Source: a virus. Taken from it: 64,000 nt of DNA. The number at the start of each line of letters is the position of its first letter. Within the stretch, counting starts at the first letter, position 1. Positions 4,533 through 32,477 of this stretch are shown piece after piece. The stretch covers positions 32,001 to 96,000 of IMG/VR virus record IMGVR_UViG_3300022843_000001. The stretch is one strand, 5' to 3'. A program made the translations under genes and the position numbers. The notes beneath the pieces were generated by a model. That model saw only the letters and a list, made by a program, of their open reading frames with translations, did no database searches and was not told the origin of the DNA.

Positions 4533-4763
4533 TTACCCATTATGTTTAACTCCTGTATTGAATTCTTGAGGGCCTTCGGTGGTGAATTCCATACCAGCAA
4601 TATTGCCGACATAAGTTTTACCATTCCACCGCATATGAATTTTGTTATGTGCAATGAATGCATTTAATGATTCACCCACCTTTACATTATCCACCTCTGC
4701 CTCAACCGCTTTATCATTGCGAGTGTTTATGATTATTGCTGTCTTTGCAAAATATGTGCTCAT
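4533..4763 (-). CDS. Hypothetical protein (start at MSTYFAK)
   Basis: ORF with GAG-type RBS before Met18; phage-like composition. Confidence 0.55.
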   Translation of the reverse strand: MSTYFAKTAIIINTRNDKAVEAEVDNVKVGESLNAFIAHNKIHMRWNGKTYVGNIAGMEFTTEGPQEFNTGVKHNG

Positions 4764-7343: not shown

Positions 7344-7691
7344 TCATCCATTATTTTTCTCTATATGTTTGCATTTGCGCCGAAATTTAAATCCAGGGCA
7401 AGTGCATGATAATTTTCCTTCAACATCAGACACAACATAATTAGTGCCTTTGCTGCCTTGGACAACCCAAGTGATACCTTCTGGTACAGCAGGGGCAGAA
7501 GCATCATTTCGACTACACAAAGTTCTGAACTTACGGCGGGACTTGCTGAATCTCTTCATCGGATTGATGAACTCTTTATATTCACCATTTGGCGGCTGGT
7601 ACCCTACAAGAGCACCGCTATCATTGACATGATACATACCGCCTGGGTATTCCCAATCAGTGATTTCTTCTAATACCGTAATTGATGCCAT
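7344..7691 (-). CDS. SWIM zinc-finger protein
   Basis: V.GSKG..Y.V......SCTCPGFKFRRKCKHI. Confidence 0.75.
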   Translation of the reverse strand: MASITVLEEITDWEYPGGMYHVNDSGALVGYQPPNGEYKEFINPMKRFSKSRRKFRTLCSRNDASAPAVPEGITWVVQGSKGTNYVVSDVEGKLSCTCPGFKFRRKCKHIEKNNG

Positions 7692-9930: not shown

Positions 9931-10025
9931 AATTTAATTTGTTTCTCAATTTCAATACGTGTATTATATCATAAGGTGGGGGTTGTGTCAACAACTTAGT
10001 TGTTATATCGATATAACTGATAGTT
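9931..10025 (-). repeat. Early promoter cassette copy driving glycosylase-rtcB
   Basis: -35 9986-9991, -10 9963-9968, perfect palindrome GTTATATCGATATAAC 10002-10017. Confidence 0.85.
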
Positions 10026-10037
10026 ATATGGGGGAAT

Positions 10038-10112
10038 TGGTGGGCATGCTAGGGTTCGAACCTAGGATAGCAGATTCAAAATCTGCCGTGTTTCCTACTA
10101 CACTACACGCCT
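10038..10112 (-). tRNA. tRNA-Gln(TTG)
   Basis: GCAGA-TTTTGAA-TCTGC anticodon arm, TTCGAA T-loop, CCA. Confidence 0.9.
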
Positions 10113-10131
10113 ATAATTAGAATATACAATT

Positions 10132-10204
10132 TGGCGCTCCCGATAGGACTCGAACCTATAAATTCCCAGCTTCGTAGGCCGAGTTGCATCCAGTTGCCGA
10201 GAGC
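10132..10204 (-). tRNA. tRNA-Arg(ACG), shortened D-arm
   Basis: CTACGAA loop, GTTCGAGTC, acceptor GCTCTCG/CGGGAGC, CCA. Confidence 0.75.
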
Positions 10205-10209
10205 ATAAT

Positions 10210-10374
10210 TTAATAATTTTCGAATTTGCATTTATTGCAGTGGACGTGATGCCTATGGTCTTCTTTGTTTTTCTGGTCACAATTGGTTAGATTACCGGAC
10301 AAGCAATGAGGGCATATTTTACCTGCCTTCAATTTGTCTCGGAACTTTCTATGTTTACCGCTTCTATTAGACAT
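10210..10374 (-). CDS. Small zinc-ribbon protein, 54 aa
   Basis: Hand translation MSNRSGKHRKFRDKLKAGKICPHCLSGNLTNCDQKNKEDHRHHVHCNKCKFENY; GGA RBS; CxxC...CxxC. Confidence 0.6.
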   Translation of the reverse strand: MSNRSGKHRKFRDKLKAGKICPHCLSGNLTNCDQKNKEDHRHHVHCNKCKFENY

Positions 10375-10390
10375 TTCGTTTCCTATAAAT

Positions 10391-10480
10391 TGGCGGAAAG
10401 ATGAGGAGTCGAACCCCTAACGCTACTAACGTCACCACGGTATTCAACACCGTTTGCCGGCCTACCCAGCGGATCAATCC
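10391..10480 (-). tRNA. tRNA-Ser(TGA)
   Basis: ACGGT-GTTGAAT-ACCGT, long variable arm, G73, CCA. Confidence 0.85.
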
Positions 10481-10490
10481 ATAATTTAAA

Positions 10491-10588
10491 ACTGTCTCAG
10501 GATCGTGCCTGATTAACTGGGTTAAGGACCCATTGCATTATTGCTGTGTCATAGTGCACTAATCACAGAAATTATTATGCTAAACAGT
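10491..10588 (-). ncRNA. tRNA-like four-way RNA with enlarged D-position arm
   Basis: Closing stem ACTGTT/GACAGT, long arm with CTGTG/CACAG, TGGG-TCCTTAA-CCCA, TCAGG-CACGAT-CCTGA; no CCA. Confidence 0.4.
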
Positions 10589-10630
10589 GTGTTATAACAA
10601 GATTTTCTACTATATTCAGTAGATGTAATT

Positions 10631-10717
10631 TGGAAGAAGGTAGAGGTAACGATCCCCGAACGCTATAAACGATCCCTTGGGGTTCAAACCCAATTTGTGC
10701 CCAGCACGGTACCTTCC
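10631..10717 (-). tRNA. tRNA-Ser(TGA) second copy, ATCGTTA T-loop
   Basis: TTGGG-TTTGAAC-CCCAA, long variable arm, CCA. Confidence 0.8.
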
Positions 10718-10722
10718 ATTTT

Positions 10723-10796
10723 TGGTAGTCAATGTTGGAATTGAACCAACGTCTCAGGCATGTAAAACCTGTGCTAATCCCCTCAGCTAATCGACT
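10723..10796 (-). tRNA. tRNA-Val(TAC)
   Basis: CAGGT-TTTACAT-GCCTG, acceptor AGTCGAT/ATTGACT, CCA. Confidence 0.85.
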
Positions 10797-10801
10797 TTAA
10801 T

Positions 10802-10870
10802 TGGTGGGCCGAGAGGGTCACGATCCCTCTCTCTCCAAATTATGAGTTTGTTGCTTTCCCAGTTAAGCTG
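10802..10870 (-). pseudogene. tRNA(CAT) lacking a matching 5' acceptor strand, fused to upstream tRNA-like element
   Basis: D, anticodon (CTCATAA) and T arms and CCA present; the 5' strand expected to pair with TCGGCCC is replaced by the 3' end of the next element. Confidence 0.55.
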
Positions 10871-10950
10871 TACCAGCCGAGGGATTGAACCTCGTATTGG
10901 ATATCAAAGTGACGCCTTGACAATAATATCCTAGCAAACCATGCGCTGGC
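10871..10950 (-). ncRNA. tRNA-like element with extended anticodon-position hairpin
   Basis: GCCAGC/GCTGGT acceptor, GCA-TGGTT-TGC, GGATAT/ATATCC hairpin, CGAGG-TTCAATC-CCTCG. Confidence 0.45.
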
Positions 10951-10955
10951 ATTGA

Positions 10956-11026
10956 TGGTGGTGAGCCTAGGTATCGAACCTAACTGATCTGAGATATGAA
11001 CTCTGATTGGTCCCTGACCGCCCACC
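10956..11026 (-). tRNA. tRNA-Met or Ile2 (CAT), shortened D-arm
   Basis: TTCATAT loop, acceptor GGTGGGC/GCTCACC, CCA. Confidence 0.7.
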
Positions 11027-11033
11027 ATAAAAG

Positions 11034-11123
11034 TGGAGGAAGACGCTGAAATTGAATCAGACACACATTTCTGGTGCGATTTGTTTAGCAAACAATCCTA
11101 GTCACCAGACTAGATCATCTTCC
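11034..11123 (-). tRNA. tRNA-Ser(GCT)
   Basis: TTGCTAA loop, long variable arm, acceptor GGAAGAT/GTCTTCC, CCA. Confidence 0.8.
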
Positions 11124-11128
11124 GAAAA

Positions 11129-11199
11129 TGGCGACCCGATAAGGAATTGAACCTTACAAGACAACGTTTGGAGTGTCGTCACCGCCCAGCGGCCGAGCC
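11129..11199 (-). tRNA. tRNA-Trp(CCA), shortened D-arm
   Basis: CTCCAAA loop, G73, CCA; D-arm CCGC-TGG-GCGG. Confidence 0.75.
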
Positions 11200-11204
11200 A
11201 ATAT

Positions 11205-11280
11205 TGGAGGCAAATAAGAGAATCAAACTCTTCAATAACGAATTTGCAATTCGCACCCGTCATCAGCTGGGTCATCTGCC
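11205..11280 (-). tRNA. tRNA-Cys(GCA)
   Basis: GCGAA-TTGCAAA-TTCGT, U73, CCA. Confidence 0.85.
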
Positions 11281-11287
11281 GTAAAAT

Positions 11288-11359
11288 TGGTGGAGAATAT
11301 CGGTAACGATCCGATCCATCGACATTGCAAATGTCAAGTCTATCCCATACAGATTCCCC
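11288..11359 (-). tRNA. tRNA-Ala(TGC), ATCGTTA T-loop
   Basis: TTTGCAA loop and G3:U70 identity pair, CCA. Confidence 0.85.
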
Positions 11360-11457
11360 AAATTTGGTGGACCTTTTAAGAAGGTAGCCGAACCTTTATT
11401 CTATCGCGTGTTCCATATTACACCACATGCCGGACTCGAACCGGATCTCTAAGAATT

Positions 11458-11543
11458 TGGTGGTAGTGGAAGGATTCGAACCCTCAATGACTAGCATACC
11501 TGCGGGTTACAGCCGCGTACCCTTCCTAATGGGTGTCACTACC
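11458..11543 (-). tRNA. tRNA-Tyr(GTA)
   Basis: GCGG-CTGTAAC-CCGC, long variable arm, CCA. Confidence 0.9.
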
Positions 11544-12077
11544 TTTGTTTCTTTTCAATGTTCTAGTTGCATTGGTCACCGTTGCGGCACAACTAGAACT
11601 ACAATATTTGTTCTTTCGTTTTTTATAAGATATAGCATCATGACAATATTCACATATCTTAGGAGATTCTTTATATATAGCTTGAGTCTTATAATGTCGG
11701 GCATTAGCTTTTTCTGATGCCCCATTTTCATTAGCTATGCGCATTGCCTTTTGATTTTTAAGTTTTCTCAATTTCTCATTAGAGTTGATATAGTCCCATC
11801 CACCAGAACCACCTAATTTTAGGTTATAGGTATTAGATTCAGCAATGAAATCAAGATTAACAATTTCAGATTCCTTGTTAAACATTTCCTCTGGGTTGTC
11901 ATAAACGAATAAGATTTCTTTTGTGAATTTGTCTAATCCATGTTTGTCCTGAGCGTATTTTAAGTATTTTCCAGAACCCATATAATTGTCGTTCAAATTT
12001 TTGGTCTTATGTGTTCCAATATAGAACTTGCCATTGATTTGATTTGAAATCTTATAAACAGTGTATTTTATTTCCAT
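11526..12077 (-). mobile_element. GIY-YIG (Seg-like) homing endonuclease inside tRNA array
   Basis: [21 protein letters not shown]...YMGSG, YNLKLGG, C-terminal CEYC...YCSSSC; late promoter TATAAATA at 12083-12090; 3' end overlaps tRNA-Tyr. Confidence 0.85.
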
Positions 12078-12117
12078 ACATCTATTTATAATATTTCGAG
12101 TCTTGACTTCGACTCAA

Positions 12118-12191
12118 GGGAGCAGGTAGGGATAATCGAAATCCACTCAGCACGGCTTGGAAGGCCGGCGACTCACCTCGAGCTTACCTGC
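12118..12191 (-). tRNA. tRNA-Gly(TCC)
   Basis: CGGC-CTTCCAA-GCCG, acceptor GCAGGTA/TACCTGC, U73, ends CCC rather than CCA. Confidence 0.8.
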
Positions 12192-12203
12192 AAAAATAAA
12201 ACA

Positions 12204-12299
12204 CACGACAGACAGAGGGCGATAACAAATGGGCTTTAACGATATATCAGCATCATCCCTGCCGCACCTCGACGGCTTTTCTCTACTTCATCTGTCGTG
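12204..12299 (-). ncRNA. Structured non-tRNA element in tRNA array
   Basis: 9-bp closing stem CACGACAGA/TCTGTCGTG enclosing GCCG-TCGAGGTG-CGGC hairpin. Confidence 0.4.
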
Positions 12300-12305
12300 C
12301 ATATT

Positions 12306-12377
12306 TGGTAGCGGAAAGAGGACTTGAACCTCTGCTTCACAGGTTATGAGCCTGGAATGCAACCGTTGCGTTCCGCG
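12306..12377 (-). tRNA. tRNA-Met(CAT), initiator-like
   Basis: CTCATAA loop, unpaired C1:U72, CGCGG start, short D-arm, CCA. Confidence 0.75.
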
Positions 12378-12384
12378 TTAAAAA

Positions 12385-12449
12385 GGTCGAGAGCGCAGGA
12401 CTTGAACCTGACTATGATTCCCGTATAGGGACTTAACATTGTACTCTCT
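12385..12449 (-). pseudogene. Degenerate tRNA
   Basis: CAGG-TTCAAGT-CCTG T-arm and acceptor-like stem; D and anticodon arms collapsed. Confidence 0.45.
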
Positions 12450-12517
12450 ATAAATTGGCGGCAAACTTTCCATTCGCCTTGCTGATCACCTTGTACAAAG
12501 TGGTAGCATCTACATGT

Positions 12518-12593
12518 TGGCGACCCTTACGAGTTTTGATCTCGTTGCCTCCACCTTGACAGGGTGGCGCTCTCCCGATTGAGCTAAAGGGTC
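12518..12593 (-). tRNA. tRNA-Asp(GTC)
   Basis: CCACC-CTGTCAA-GGTGG, G73, CCA; T-loop ATCAAAA. Confidence 0.9.
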
Positions 12594-12602
12594 TTAATTT
12601 AA

Positions 12603-12781
12603 AATATTCTGTCAGGATGGTTGGACTCGAACCATCCATCTAAAGCATTTAGTCAGGACGGCTGGATTCGAACCAGCGTCTCCGCGTTCCAAACGCGGTA
12701 CTAAACCAAGCTCAGCTACGCCCGGACTAAATGCTCTATAAACGTGACTTACCAAGCTAACCTACACCCTGACACAATATT
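12603..12781 (-). ncRNA. Nested tRNA: tRNA-Pro(TGG) (12653-12725) inserted in the anticodon arm of an outer tRNA-Pro-like shell
   Basis: Inner cloverleaf CCGCG-TTTGGAA-CGCGG; 14-bp connector; outer acceptor TGTCAGGGTG/CATCCTGACA, own D-loop AGCTTGGT and T-loop TTCGAGT. Confidence 0.8.
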
Positions 12782-12788
12782 CTAAATT

Positions 12789-12864
12789 TGGTGCGTCCTC
12801 GAGGAATCGAACCTCGTTATCTGGTTCTTCAAACCAGCGCATTGACCACAACTGCCTAAGACGC
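12789..12864 (-). tRNA. tRNA-Phe(GAA)
   Basis: CTGGT-TTGAAGA-ACCAG, CCA. Confidence 0.9.
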
Positions 12865-12869
12865 GTAAT

Positions 12870-12944
12870 TGGAGCCCCTAGTCGGAATCGAACCAACTTA
12901 TCCGGATTACAAAACCGGTGCATCACCTTTTATGCTTTAGGGGC
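12870..12944 (-). tRNA. tRNA-Thr(TGT)
   Basis: CCGGT-TTTGTAA-TCCGG, CCA. Confidence 0.9.
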
Positions 12945-12948
12945 GTTT

Positions 12949-13103
12949 TGGCATTCCCGATAGGACTCGAACCCTGAACTTGACTTTAGAAGAATCGTGT
13001 GATTTCCAGTTTTACCATACACGCATTATTTGTTATCATGTAATATACACGTTACCTTATATCGACTTATTGCAACGTGCCTATCCAATTAGACTACGGG
13101 AAC
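12949..13103 (-). tRNA. tRNA-Arg(TCT) with ~80-nt insertion containing a second D-arm
   Basis: Acceptor GTTCCCG/CGGGAAT 155 nt apart; D-arm GTCT-AATTGGAT-AGGC; anticodon GATT-CTTCTAA-AGTC; T-loop TTCGAGT; CCA. Confidence 0.6.
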
Positions 13104-13766: not shown

Positions 13767-14023
13767 TCTTTTTTCTTAATTTTCTTTATAATTAATTGTT
13801 ATATCGTTATAATTATAAAGAAAATTAAGGCCTGATTTGCAGGCCTTAACCATATCTTATGTCGTCTTCTTCTATATTTTTCTATTTTTCAACTAAAGGA
13901 ATTCTTAATTCTTGATTCTTGATCAGCATTTACAAATTCCCAATTTCCTATACATTCATTATAACAGGATTTAGTACCTGTGTCAACAACTAATTGCAAT
14001 ATTCTTATAATTAGATTCAGTAC

Positions 14024-14191
14024 TTATCGTAGTGAACTAATGATATCAGCGATGGAAGCGGGTTTAGCTTGACTGTACGTCTTTACAGCATATTCATAAT
14101 TATTATCAAGCATTTTTGCTACATCATTCTCATTGTTTCCCCATTTTAATAACAATTTAGTTACCTTGGATTTGAATTTATTCTGTATCAT
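14024..14191 (-). CDS. Small early protein, 55 aa (MIQNKFKSKVTKLLLKWGNNE...)
   Basis: Hand translation; directly behind cassette. Confidence 0.55.
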   Translation of the reverse strand: MIQNKFKSKVTKLLLKWGNNENDVAKMLDNNYEYAVKTYSQAKPASIADIISSLR

Positions 14192-14291
14192 AATATTTCT
14201 CAATTTCTATACATGTATTATACCATAGTCCCGGCAATATGTCAACAACTAATTTCAGTTTAGTTAGAACTTATGGTTATATCGATATAAT
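14192..14291 (-). repeat. Early promoter cassette copy
   Basis: -35 14240-14245, -10 14217-14222, near-palindrome 14276-14291. Confidence 0.85.
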
Positions 14292-14292
14292 T

Positions 14293-14366
14293 TGGTTCTC
14301 AATGATGGTAACGATCCACCGTCGTTCGGTTATCAGCCGAATGCTCTACCTTTGAGCTAATCGAGA
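14293..14366 (-). tRNA. tRNA-Ile(GAT), ATCGTTA T-loop
   Basis: TTCGG-CTGATAA-CCGAA, CCA. Confidence 0.9.
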
Positions 14367-14445
14367 ATAATTTCTCATTTCCTATACATTTATTATAACA
14401 GGATTTTGTGCCTATGTCAACCTTTATTTTTAATTTATTCAGTCC

Positions 14446-14479
14446 AAAAAAAACCCCAATCTGTGAAGAGTTGGGGTTT
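14446..14479 (-). terminator. Intrinsic terminator of putative attenuator 2
   Basis: AAACCCCAA-11 nt-TTGGGGTTT then TTTTT. Confidence 0.85.
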
Positions 14480-14509
14480 GGTATTCTTGAATATGGTTTT
14501 TATATCAAG

Positions 14510-14620
14510 TTATACTTTCCCCAAGCCAATATCGGCCATGCTCGCCCAATTGCCGCGATCATTGATCGTCGGATATTGAATCGATATAAACTGTTGTCTT
14601 AGGGAAGTCATTTTGCTCAT
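14510..14620 (-). CDS. Putative leader peptide 2, 36 aa
   Basis: MSKMTSLRQQFISIQYPTINDRGNWASMADIGLGKV; ends within the 5' strand of an antiterminator hairpin. Confidence 0.6.
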   Translation of the reverse strand: MSKMTSLRQQFISIQYPTINDRGNWASMADIGLGKV

Positions 14621-14668
14621 TAATTTTGGTTATGTATTATATATACAAGTTTTGTGCTTAATCTAAAT

Positions 14669-15112
14669 TTATTTTAAACTAAATGATTCACCACATCCAC
14701 ATGCCTGTCCTGCCAGTGGATTGTTAAATGTCAAGCCAGACTCGAATAGTTTCTTAACGTAGTCAACTTCCATTCCATCGATAAACAATATAGATTTCTT
14801 ATCAACAAATATAGACACGCCGTCATGAGCATCCGTGAACTTGTAATCATATTCATCAGGCGTCTCCACGAATTCAACCAGATATTGATAACCACCACAA
14901 CCAGCACCTTCTACACCAAATCGAACTCCTATAGTCTCGATTCCACGGTTATCAATCTCCCATTTGATAAATTGTGATGCATCTTTGGTTAATGTCAAAC
15001 CCACAACCTCAAGTTTTTGTGCAGGTATATTGAAATTTATGTCTGGCTCGATATTCACGATATCTCTGCTTGCTTTGCGGACTGCAGCATAGTAATGTGC
15101 TTTCTGATCCAC
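14669..15112 (-). CDS. iscA: Fe-S cluster assembly A-type carrier (IscA/HesB family)
   Basis: GVRFGVEGAGCGGYQY, VDKKS...IDGMEVDY, NNP....CGCGESFS. Confidence 0.9.
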   Translation of the reverse strand: MDQKAHYYAAVRKASRDIVNIEPDINFNIPAQKLEVVGLTLTKDASQFIKWEIDNRGIETIGVRFGVEGAGCGGYQYLVEFVETPDEYDYKFTDAHDGVSIFVDKKSILFIDGMEVDYVKKLFESGLTFNNPLAGQACGCGESFSLK

Positions 15113-16218: not shown

Positions 16219-16249
16219 AAAAAAACCCGCGATATTTCTATGGCGGGTT
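16219..16249 (-). terminator. Intrinsic terminator of putative attenuator 1, immediately upstream of first tRNA
   Basis: AACCCGC-12 nt-GCGGGTT then TTTTT. Confidence 0.85.
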
Positions 16250-16283
16250 AACGTTGTCTCTTATTATAAGTTTGTTACTTTCT

Positions 16284-16358
16284 TTAAGACAATGCATCCC
16301 CGCTACACAATTTCTCGTGTTTTAAGAGTTGTTCTAGTTTTAAAATTAATGTTTTCAT
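16284..16358 (-). CDS. Putative leader peptide 1, 24 aa
   Basis: MKTLILKLEQLLKHEKLCSGDALS; preceded by late promoter TATAAATA (16364-16371) and sigma70 promoter (16396-16424). Confidence 0.6.
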   Translation of the reverse strand: MKTLILKLEQLLKHEKLCSGDALS

Positions 16359-16427
16359 ATGTTTATTTATACGTTTTATTATTTAATATATAGTTATTAT
16401 AACAGGTTTTTACACCTTTGTCAACCT

Positions 16428-31676: not shown

Positions 31677-32477
31677 TTATAGTTCCACCGTAAAAGATGC
31701 ATCAAAATCTGGATTTAAATCAGTAGGATAATATCCTCGAGGATTACATATCACCCGAGTATTTCCAATTTGATAGTCGCTTGTGTTGTGTAAATGCCCA
31801 TGAACCCAGAGCTCTGGTTGTGCTTCTCCCAAATCTATTACATGTTCGAATAGCTCAGTGCAATAGGCACCATTCAAAGAACTATTTTTGTAGTTATCAG
31901 ATACAGATTGAAACGATGGCGCCATATGTGTTACTACCACCACCTTGTTTCCTTTTTCTTTTTCAATCTTTATTAGTTCCATAATATAGATTTTAGAAGA
32001 CATATGATCTTGTATTGTATCTATTGGTGTCAACTTACGCTTCCAAGGTTCGTCCAAGGTGCCTGTCCTTATAGTGCTATAATCATTCATACCGCACTGT
32101 GCATCATGCATAGTCATTACATTGTGGCCATCCATATCAGACCACAAAGTTGCACCAATAAATGCAACATCTTCTAGCCGCGTGACGCCCTTTTCTAAAA
32201 CACTCACATTATCAAATTCTATTAGTTCGTTTGATATGCGATTATGTGTAGTTGGAAAGTTTGTCCCGTAATGCTCATGATTTCCAAGCACAAATATAAC
32301 TTCTTTGAAGCGATAAGACATTTCTTCGATGAAATATCTATAGGACGATTTACGTTTAGCAAGGCCAATATCTCCTGCAAGAACAAGAACCGTATCTTTG
32401 TCTTGAGGTAGATCGGGGATTTCCATATCGCCTTGACTAAACTCAAGATGTAAATCTGACATTATTCTAATTTTCAT
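31677..32477 (-). CDS. Calcineurin-like metallophosphoesterase
   Basis: SDLHLEF, LAGDI, GNHEHY, THMAP, HGHLH. Confidence 0.85.
   Translation of the reverse strand: MKIRIMSDLHLEFSQGDMEIPDLPQDKDTVLVLAGDIGLAKRKSSYRYFIEEMSYRFKEVIFVLGNHEHYGTNFPTTHNRISNELIEFDNVSVLEKGVTRLEDVAFIGATLWSDMDGHNVMTMHDAQCGMNDYSTIRTGTLDEPWKRKLTPIDTIQDHMSSKIYIMELIKIEKEKGNKVVVVTHMAPSFQSVSDNYKNSSLNGAYCTELFEHVIDLGEAQPELWVHGHLHNTSDYQIGNTRVICNPRGYYPTDLNPDFDASFTVEL

Follow-up and report, generated by a model that had tools for sequence, protein, structure and literature searches.

The enterobacterial amino-acid operon attenuators, represented by the trpL, hisL, leuL, thrL and ilv leaders, have a short leader open reading frame (ORF), three alternative helices (1:2, 2:3 and 3:4) and a stop codon at which the ribosome masks region 2; the position of the ribosome decides the outcome. 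The pyrBI and Tn916 tet(M) leaders sense the general coupling of translation and transcription. In T-boxes a long conserved leader itself binds uncharged tRNA and no ORF is needed; they regulate synthetase and amino-acid genes, mostly in Gram-positive organisms. Why phages carry arrays of tRNA genes, and what use they make of them, is an open question, for which codon bias, supply late in infection and escape from tRNA-cutting defences have been proposed. The present report describes an element that precedes such an array, at positions 14446-14645 (minus strand) of a 64,000-nt stretch of viral DNA (positions 32,001 to 96,000 of the IMG/VR record IMGVR_UViG_3300022843_000001), which is referred to as the window. 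The complete record comprises 198,785 bp and carries T4-type replication genes. In T4-type phages, the elements named PeSL combine a near-consensus sigma-70 promoter, an AT-rich upstream sequence and a terminating stem-loop with G/C tracts; they are repeated in plastic early regions, lie at indel borders, occur as degraded copies and are described as passive modules that drive recombination (PMC2839356, PMC4122927).

The element is interpreted here as a ribosome-mediated transcription attenuator of the trp type that would raise read-through into the tRNA genes under slow decoding, a reading to which we assign a probability of roughly 60%. Phages equipped in this way would probably transcribe more tRNA when their ribosomes run slowly. 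The short ORF, the three helices and the stop position listed above for the amino-acid operon attenuators recur at this locus, where the position of the ribosome would likewise decide the outcome. Those attenuators control biosynthetic enzymes and their leaders contain runs of a single codon, whereas the phage device precedes tRNA genes and its leaders sample nearly all amino acids, or those of the tRNA block that follows. Also unlike the amino-acid operon attenuators, many phage members are predicted to be leaderless, and a promoter stands past the terminator in the window and in nine subfamilies of relatives. As in pyrBI and tet(M), the signal would be a ribosome keeping pace with the polymerase and not a single amino acid; in those systems, however, a close ribosome prevents the terminator, while the phage geometry predicts the opposite, trp-like termination. 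A terminator/antiterminator switch that would respond to tRNA charging is the point in common with the T-box (RF00230), but neither a T-box nor any other Rfam match was detected in the window region up to E = 1. The PeSL combination of a promoter with an adjacent terminating stem-loop in a T4-type phage is present in the window, as are its repeated family, indel borders and degraded copies (39 promoters, an 891-nt indel and the copy at 14665-14636). PeSL descriptions mention neither an alternative helix nor a leader ORF nor any connection with tRNA genes, in which they differ from the phage device.

All genes around 14446-14645 are located on the minus strand. An earlier note, made from the letters of the window alone, had proposed an ORF, a terminator, an alternative hairpin and four downstream promoters here, and each of these was found on that strand. 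The ORF, designated leader 2, extends over 14510..14620 (36 codons), has a second ATG at 14611 and ends with the stop codon TAA at 14512-14510. Near its end lies region 2, a G-run (14517..14525) whose core TTGGGG occupies 14524-14519, inside codons 33-34. Region 2 can pair with region 3 in an antiterminator hairpin 2:3 (14471..14524), which consists of the pairs TTGGGG/CCCCAA, GTAT/ATAC, CTTGA/TCAAG and TAT/ATA and has a stability of -13.8 to -14.4 kcal/mol. The 3' strand of this hairpin, CCCCAA at 14476-14471, is common to the 5' arm of an intrinsic terminator 3:4 (14446..14479), and formation of either hairpin excludes the other. The terminator has a stem of 9-12 bp with the arms AAACCCCAA (14479-14471) and TTGGGGTTT (14459-14451), a stability of -12.7 to -13.3 kcal/mol, and a U8 run that ends at 14446 and is the longest among the predicted terminators of the genome. 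In the minimum-energy fold TTGGGG pairs upstream with region 1 (14598..14606, 9 bp with region 2), which closes a 95-nt hairpin across codons 5-35 (z = -3.46, with 1/200 shuffles as good); the whole 206-nt stretch folds at z = -4.25 relative to shuffles. With the pairing of region 1 added, the formal 1:2, 2:3, 3:4 layout of a trp-type attenuator is obtained, with mutually exclusive helices of which 3:4 is an intrinsic terminator. The stop codon begins 10 nt downstream of the G-run's first position, with 33 nt between its end and CCCC, a position from which a terminating ribosome would mask region 2 but not region 3.

In the proposed mechanism, a ribosome travelling at full speed would reach the leader stop codon and cover region 2; region 3 would then pair with region 4, and the polymerase would terminate at 14446. 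With a ribosome delayed at any hungry codon, region 2 would stay accessible and pair with region 3, formation of the terminator would be blocked, and transcription would continue into tRNA-Ile(GAT) (14293..14366), the first gene of tRNA block 2, and into the remainder of that block. With no ribosome on the leader, region 1 would hold region 2 and transcription would again end at the terminator. Anatomy, conservation, covariation and linkage to tRNA genes are observed; that the leader is translated, that stalling provides the switch signal and that this copy has remained active is what we infer from the sequence. Since the leaders hold nearly all amino acids, or those of their own block, the switch would report a general shortage of charged tRNA, and this signal would feed back on the transcription of tRNA genes. 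The window copy would act at the end of the transcription unit that comprises tRNA block 1 and an IscA-like gene, ahead of P14420 (14392..14420), a perfect sigma-70 promoter (12/12, with TG) located 26 nt past the U-run. The tRNA-Ile gene starts 79 nt past the U-run and 83 nt past the matched pattern. Because P14420 stands past the terminator, the switch in the window would only add read-through to a constitutive early supply and would not be the sole gate of block 2. The caveat of the earlier note, that the downstream promoters limit the switch to read-through, holds for P14420 and applies equally to nine other subfamilies.

Relatives of the element were found in about a dozen further uncultured phages. 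The starting point was a control set of 36 IMG/VR loci chosen by the terminator stem alone (37 terminators), in which TTGGGG was present within 120 nt upstream of 4/37 terminators. Three of these four form one family, whose members carry a promoter, an ORF of 28 codons and the terminator 9-11 nt ahead of a 22-gene tRNA array; this array opens with tRNA-Ile(GAT) and tRNA-Asn, the first two tRNAs of block 2 in the window. None of the 33 same-stem terminator loci without a G-run at that distance had tRNA genes (0/33). A scan for TTGGGG 30-58 nt before the terminator gave eight loci, seven of them ahead of tRNA genes. A scan for the terminator only gave 161 sites; 16 of these were ahead of tRNAs, and all but a few, which are ends of ordinary genes, carried a leader ORF. 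A further scan of IMG/VR, for GGGGT 28-58 nt before a CCCCAA/TTGGGG terminator, yielded 34 loci. Genes for tRNAs were present within 600 nt downstream in 25 of them. Of these 25, 24 carry an ORF of 28-44 codons whose stop lies 9-24 nt beyond the first position of the G-run, and the remaining one, L260, represents the terminal part of an ordinary 238-aa gene. At the nine loci that lack tRNAs, the match falls at the end of an ordinary gene or in an unrelated element. The family was delimited by the G-run and the CCCCAA/TTGGGG terminator, an ORF of 28-41 codons that ends just past the G-run pairing with the 5' arm of that terminator, and tRNA genes within about 360 nt downstream. The 25 tRNA-linked loci fall into approximately 13 diverged subfamilies, and comparison with these relatives puts the layout beyond chance. 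Matches from general metagenomes, mostly unrelated bacterial sites, served as a negative control; among the 120 matches listed, three had downstream tRNAs, namely the members L319 and L391 (leaders of 35-36 codons) and the doubtful L283.

The window copy shares with this family the ORF of 36 codons, the position of the stop codon, the distance of 33 nt from stop to CCCC and the order of helix stabilities. It further shares the upstream partner for region 2, the place before tRNA-Ile and tRNA-Asn, and the promoter past the terminator, and a stretch of about 20 nt before its C-run is nearly identical to that of locus L144. It is unlike the family in its decayed promoter, a start that is not leaderless, and a core helix of 6 bp. 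The host phages are diverse. They include a complete 168-kb genome with a T4-type polymerase 46% identical to that of the window phage and another with 39% identity; on a 254-kb contig with a family member no close T4-type polymerase was detected. A complete 168-kb phage (L146) carries the same 34-nt terminator twice on the minus strand, at sites 7564-7647 and about 4560-4595, one copy following a leader ORF before tRNA-Gln and the other following an ordinary gene, with a promoter and tRNA-Glu after it; the terminator is therefore a reused module. Neither Pfam nor PHROG gave a family for the family leaders, two of them had no match in cultured-phage DNA, and Rfam gave no match up to E = 0.1 at four family loci. 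A full-text search of the literature found no description of such a device before tRNA arrays. Genes for tmRNA or tmRNA-like molecules are present near or inside the tRNA arrays of some members (L145, 6305-6703; L267, 2644-2718).

The antiterminator is conserved as a structure in the family. In an alignment of 13 sequences, from which the window was left out, the 2:3 helix extends past the letters fixed by the search patterns and covaries there. The pair at columns 7/58 is CG in six sequences and UA in six, and the pair at columns 8/57 is UA in seven, GC in four and UG in one; 87% of the alignment cells are able to pair in this helix. The covariation score is 0.232, as compared to 0.098 +/- 0.026 for shuffled alignments (0/500 reach it), and sliding the partners gives no more than 0.103. 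In the terminator, column 58 forms A-U or G-U pairs with the U-run, and only the antiterminator therefore accounts for the change in column 7. In 14/14 subfamilies the antiterminator equals or exceeds the terminator in stability (window: -14.4 versus -13.0 kcal/mol), and with region 3 omitted the G-run is paired upstream in 12/14.

The ORF is conserved independently of this helix. Across subfamilies the G-run is read in all three frames (as Gly-Val or as x-Gly-Phe) and the ORF is kept in each; every member has 25-33 nt between the stop and CCCC. What is conserved at the G-run is therefore the RNA, and the ORF is conserved on its own account, in its presence and in its end point. The earlier note had stated that hairpins kept without the ORF frame would speak against its proposal; the frame of the G-run does vary, and the ORF is present in all subfamilies. 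In five subfamilies a promoter scoring 10-12/12 ends 6-7 nt before the ATG, from which a leaderless mRNA is predicted; other subfamilies have a short 5' untranslated region with a Shine-Dalgarno sequence (L144, L259). In five subfamilies the first tRNA lies 9-37 nt past the terminator, which leaves no room for a promoter, so that the array is reached only through the terminator. In nine others a 10-12/12 promoter is present in the gap between terminator and tRNA, as in the window. The conserved architecture, the covariation of 2:3, the ORF kept in differing frames, the fixed spacing of its stop and the 18-20 amino-acid types of most leaders together lend support to what the earlier note proposed, a leader-peptide attenuator before the large tRNA block.

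The same data bear on the possibility that the peptide itself, and not the sensing of tRNA supply, is what counts. It would be a functional micro-protein or nascent arrest peptide, expressed from a promoter and terminator of its own, and would accompany tRNA arrays because it acts on translation or on a tRNA-directed host defence. The ORF is present in all family members, the promoters are strong and start codons are placed at the start of transcription, all of which would suit such a peptide, as would some features loosely shared by the aligned peptides, namely a Trp, Arg-Pro in several leaders, and Gly-Val or Gly-Phe near the end. The reading of the G-run in three frames places the conservation at that point in the RNA and not in the peptide, however, and the mutually exclusive helices 2:3 and 3:4 are both conserved. 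The peptides are barely alignable, a profile of them misses the window peptide, and they have the above-mentioned lack of a Pfam or PHROG family. A very high amino-acid diversity, described in the following, is also untypical of small functional proteins, and the micro-protein is in our view unlikely.

Diversity was evaluated in 13 leaders that are less than 60% identical. They contain 15, 17 and 18 distinct amino acids in one leader each, 19 in eight and 20 in two, where about 15 +/- 1.7 types are expected (mean z +2.0, combined p 7e-11, a value that is optimistic because the leaders are related). A third leader with all 20 amino acids (L228/L229, 34 residues) clusters with the 18-type leader L170; the three all-20 leaders span 34-37 residues. 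The leaders have diverged until they are barely alignable, yet they keep their high diversity. His is the most common missing residue, absent from 5/8 of the 19-type leaders in the non-redundant set, and Trp and Cys are about 2.5 times as frequent in the leaders as in phage proteins.

A second unit of the same kind is located upstream in the window and precedes tRNA block 1. This unit (16219-16424, minus strand) consists of a perfect sigma-70 promoter (16424-16396), a 24-codon ORF (16358-16287, leader 1), a terminator (16249-16224) and the seven tRNA genes of block 1, in the order His, Glu, Leu, Lys, Glu, Leu, Leu. A promoter-like site (16292-16263, 10/12) lies between the ORF and its terminator. 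The tRNA roster of the blocks was taken from ARAGORN at relaxed thresholds. In block 2 (window 10024-13026, minus strand) ARAGORN found nine tRNAs by default and 11 more when relaxed (Arg, three Met, Ala, Cys, Trp and four Ser), some of which are also weak Rfam tRNA matches; many tRNAs of this phage are therefore atypical. On this roster, block 2 serves 15 amino acids and block 1 only His, Glu, Leu and Lys. The division of amino acids between the two tRNA blocks is mirrored in the two leaders. Lys, Leu, Glu and His make up 58% of leader 1, versus 23% in the proteome (p = 2e-4), and 4/36 residues of leader 2 (Fisher p = 1.5e-4 for leader 1 versus leader 2). In leader 1, 13/23 codons are read by block-1 tRNAs against a background of 0.21. 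Leader 2 covers 14/15 of the block-2 amino acids (P = 0.026, or P = 0.009 jointly with its fraction of own-block residues). The codons of leader 2 were also said by the earlier note to match the anticodons of block 2, and 24/35 of them are read by block-2 tRNAs (background 0.53, p = 0.048), with no run of a single codon.

From these patterns a wider role may be imagined, which we put forward tentatively and consider less probable than the attenuator reading as such. Many large phages would possess a general decoding-speed meter, usually a leaderless mini-gene that spells nearly all 20 amino acids and is translated in pace with RNA polymerase, in which any slow codon, whether caused by codon mismatch or by a defence that cuts or depletes tRNA, flips the antiterminator and turns on the tRNA array; in the window, the two leaders would divide the sensing between His/Glu/Leu/Lys and the rest. 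If the attenuator is real, phages regulate their tRNA supply on demand, with transcription of the array tied to ribosome speed, and the role of phage tRNA arrays could be tested with simple reporters. Leader-peptide attenuation, known for amino-acid genes and some resistance genes, would be extended to tRNA genes, and a natural case of a leader selected to hold every amino acid would be at hand. The compact sequence signature would in addition allow such switches to be located in metagenomes.

Judged alone, the window copy makes a weak case, and its layout is not clearly beyond chance. Several observations count against the attenuator reading here, some of them against the family evidence as well. 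The first ATG of leader 2 has no Shine-Dalgarno sequence, and only 2% of the phage genes are as poor in this respect (a weak GAG precedes the second ATG at 14611). The leader is not leaderless either, and the promoter upstream of it is decayed. The codon log-odds of the ORF is -0.78, compared to 10.7 +/- 5.7 for 36-codon pieces of genes (1.8% lower), a score like that of non-coding DNA. The 17/20 amino-acid types in its 36 residues (Cys, Glu and His are missing) are reached by 18-28% of control peptides. The earlier note had the leader sample almost every amino acid; taken alone, 17/20 is ordinary, beside the 14/15 block-2 amino acids covered and the 15-20 types in the family. The core of the antiterminator is only 6 bp long, to which the extended helix is added. 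When the upstream 150 nt were shuffled, an equal partner for the 5' arm of the terminator arose in 7.6% of cases (p = 0.076) and an equal net energy gain in 35% (p = 0.35). With the perfect promoter P14420 between the terminator and block 2, the block does have an independent promoter and does not depend on read-through. Closer copies offer no covariation at the locus itself, as eight of nine contigs are 100% identical to the window here and one differs by an indel of 1 nt. The nearest different relative (IscA 77% identical) is without the whole block 14669-13779 (891 nt); the junctions of this indel are the IscA stop codon and a point 12 nt upstream of the -35 box that belongs to the 13766 promoter. 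When a profile was built from 17 leaders, with the window excluded, the window ORF fell outside the top 12 of the 613 small ORFs of the genome. The match of the family leader codons to the tRNA sets of their phages is weak, at loci that hold incomplete arrays. Finally, the family was retrieved by the window's own terminator motif, which is circular for that feature and samples this stem type only; owing to this retrieval and to the kinship of the members, the p-values overstate the independence of the data.

Direct searches for the window leader were in line with this. Pfam, Rfam and sequence searches with the ORF or the stretch found no relative, an exact look-up of the peptide gave no match, and phmmer against 1.8 billion representatives gave only spurious summed matches to repeat proteins. 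In cultured-phage DNA the window region was matched by the tRNA-Ile gene alone. Gene callers left the ORF uncalled on nine metagenome contigs of the same phage, which are too nearly identical here to be informative, and a route through IscA synteny led to relatives at 50-57% identity with different neighbours. Decay from a paralogue of the neighbouring DUF7421 gene, considered because of a shared six-residue C-terminal stretch, was dismissed as an origin of the ORF after BLASTP gave no alignment and the DNA alignment was unconvincing.

Prior to the comparison with other phages, a PeSL-type composite of terminator and promoter, together with a chance ORF, was the preferred reading. According to this explanation the hairpin and U-run simply end the unit of block 1 and IscA and insulate it from P14420, and the ORF and the upstream TTGGGG are leftovers without function. 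It is compatible with the genome at large, whose 39 perfect TTGACA-17-TATAAT promoters include 36 on this strand, and in which the order terminator-then-promoter is found again at 68777-68745 with P68717. Such composites at indel borders have been described for T4-like phages (PMC2839356, PMC4122927), and the 891-nt block missing from the 77% relative is bounded by cassettes. A decayed copy of the early-promoter repeat follows the IscA stop codon at 14636..14665 (minus strand), with a -35-like TAGATT, an 18-nt spacer and a perfect TATAAT at 14641-14636. In the alignment, the 80 nt past the IscA stop match the promoter repeat of the phage with a decayed -35 box; the copy can be aligned to the region's six perfect promoter cassettes, has the spacer word GCACAAAA in common with P14420, ends 15 nt before the leader ATG and has a best promoter score of 9/12. 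The weak coding signals of the ORF point the same way. This explanation does not account for a unit of ORF, G-run and terminator before tRNAs in about 13 subfamilies, for the covariation and the spacing of the stop, or for the match of the two window leaders to the tRNA rosters, and we give it a small but appreciable probability as a complete account. The two readings are compatible, as the terminator can be both. The PeSL description stays true for the pair of terminator and promoter and for the modular indel, and, should this copy have decayed, nothing beyond it may remain.

A third alternative does without translation. The stretch could be a non-coding structured RNA, either a 3' untranslated region of IscA or a small stable RNA, with the hairpin serving in processing or stabilisation in the manner of the T4 stable RNAs. 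The folding values (z = -4.25 for the 206 nt, -3.46 for the 95-nt hairpin) agree with it, as do the low codon score and the missing Shine-Dalgarno sequence, and rnaC and rnaD lie next to the tRNA cluster of T4. The stretch resembles neither of them in sequence or fold, though, and no Rfam family was matched; moreover, the relatives conserve no structure in the upstream part, whereas they always have an ORF. A direct analogue of rnaC or rnaD was discarded for this lack of similarity, and the tRNA-like T arm motif of rnaC was not found in 14446-14645. A structured RNA of this kind is quite improbable, and it and the micro-protein are both less likely readings than the attenuator.

The remaining features of the region are as follows. 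Block 1 is followed by a 73-codon ORF and then by the IscA-like Fe-S gene (14669-15112, minus strand, Pfam PF01521). This gene of the IscA/HesB type lies between the two tRNA blocks, and its homologues in distant phages adjoin radical-SAM, NifU and ferredoxin-reductase-like genes. Past P14420, further perfect TTGACA-17-TATAAT promoters are present on the minus strand at 14245-14217, 13986-13958 and 13766-13738. Block 2 contains gaps, more promoters and interspersed small ORFs and extends to about 10038. An ORF with weak similarity to GIY-YIG (SegE-like) homing endonucleases (11526-12077, minus strand) lies inside the array and abuts tRNA-Tyr; segB likewise sits in the tRNA cluster of T4.

The phage itself has a polymerase 46-50% identical to those of T4-like cyanophages, with identity to any cultured phage of at most 50%; a polymerase search for close relatives in IMG/VR gave a best identity of 59%. 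The perfect promoters are distributed over 28-112 kb of the genome (window examples: 24770, 32840 and 14245). Several of them share an upstream repeat of about 45 nt that starts with a 16-nt AT-rich palindrome, which gives the appearance of a PeSL-like cassette family. The 891-nt block (13779-14669) consists of the leader and terminator, P14420 with tRNA-Ile, P14245 with the DUF7421 ORF, and P13986 with a short unit and its terminator. In the 77% relative (L001/L002/L049, 3390-3464) it is replaced by 75 unrelated nt, with borders at promoter cassettes, and tRNA block 1 is likewise missing there. The short unit of P13986 (13823-13986, minus strand) has a perfect promoter and, about 105 nt further on, a strong terminator hairpin (13851-13823); it contains no convincing ORF and is possibly a small RNA gene.

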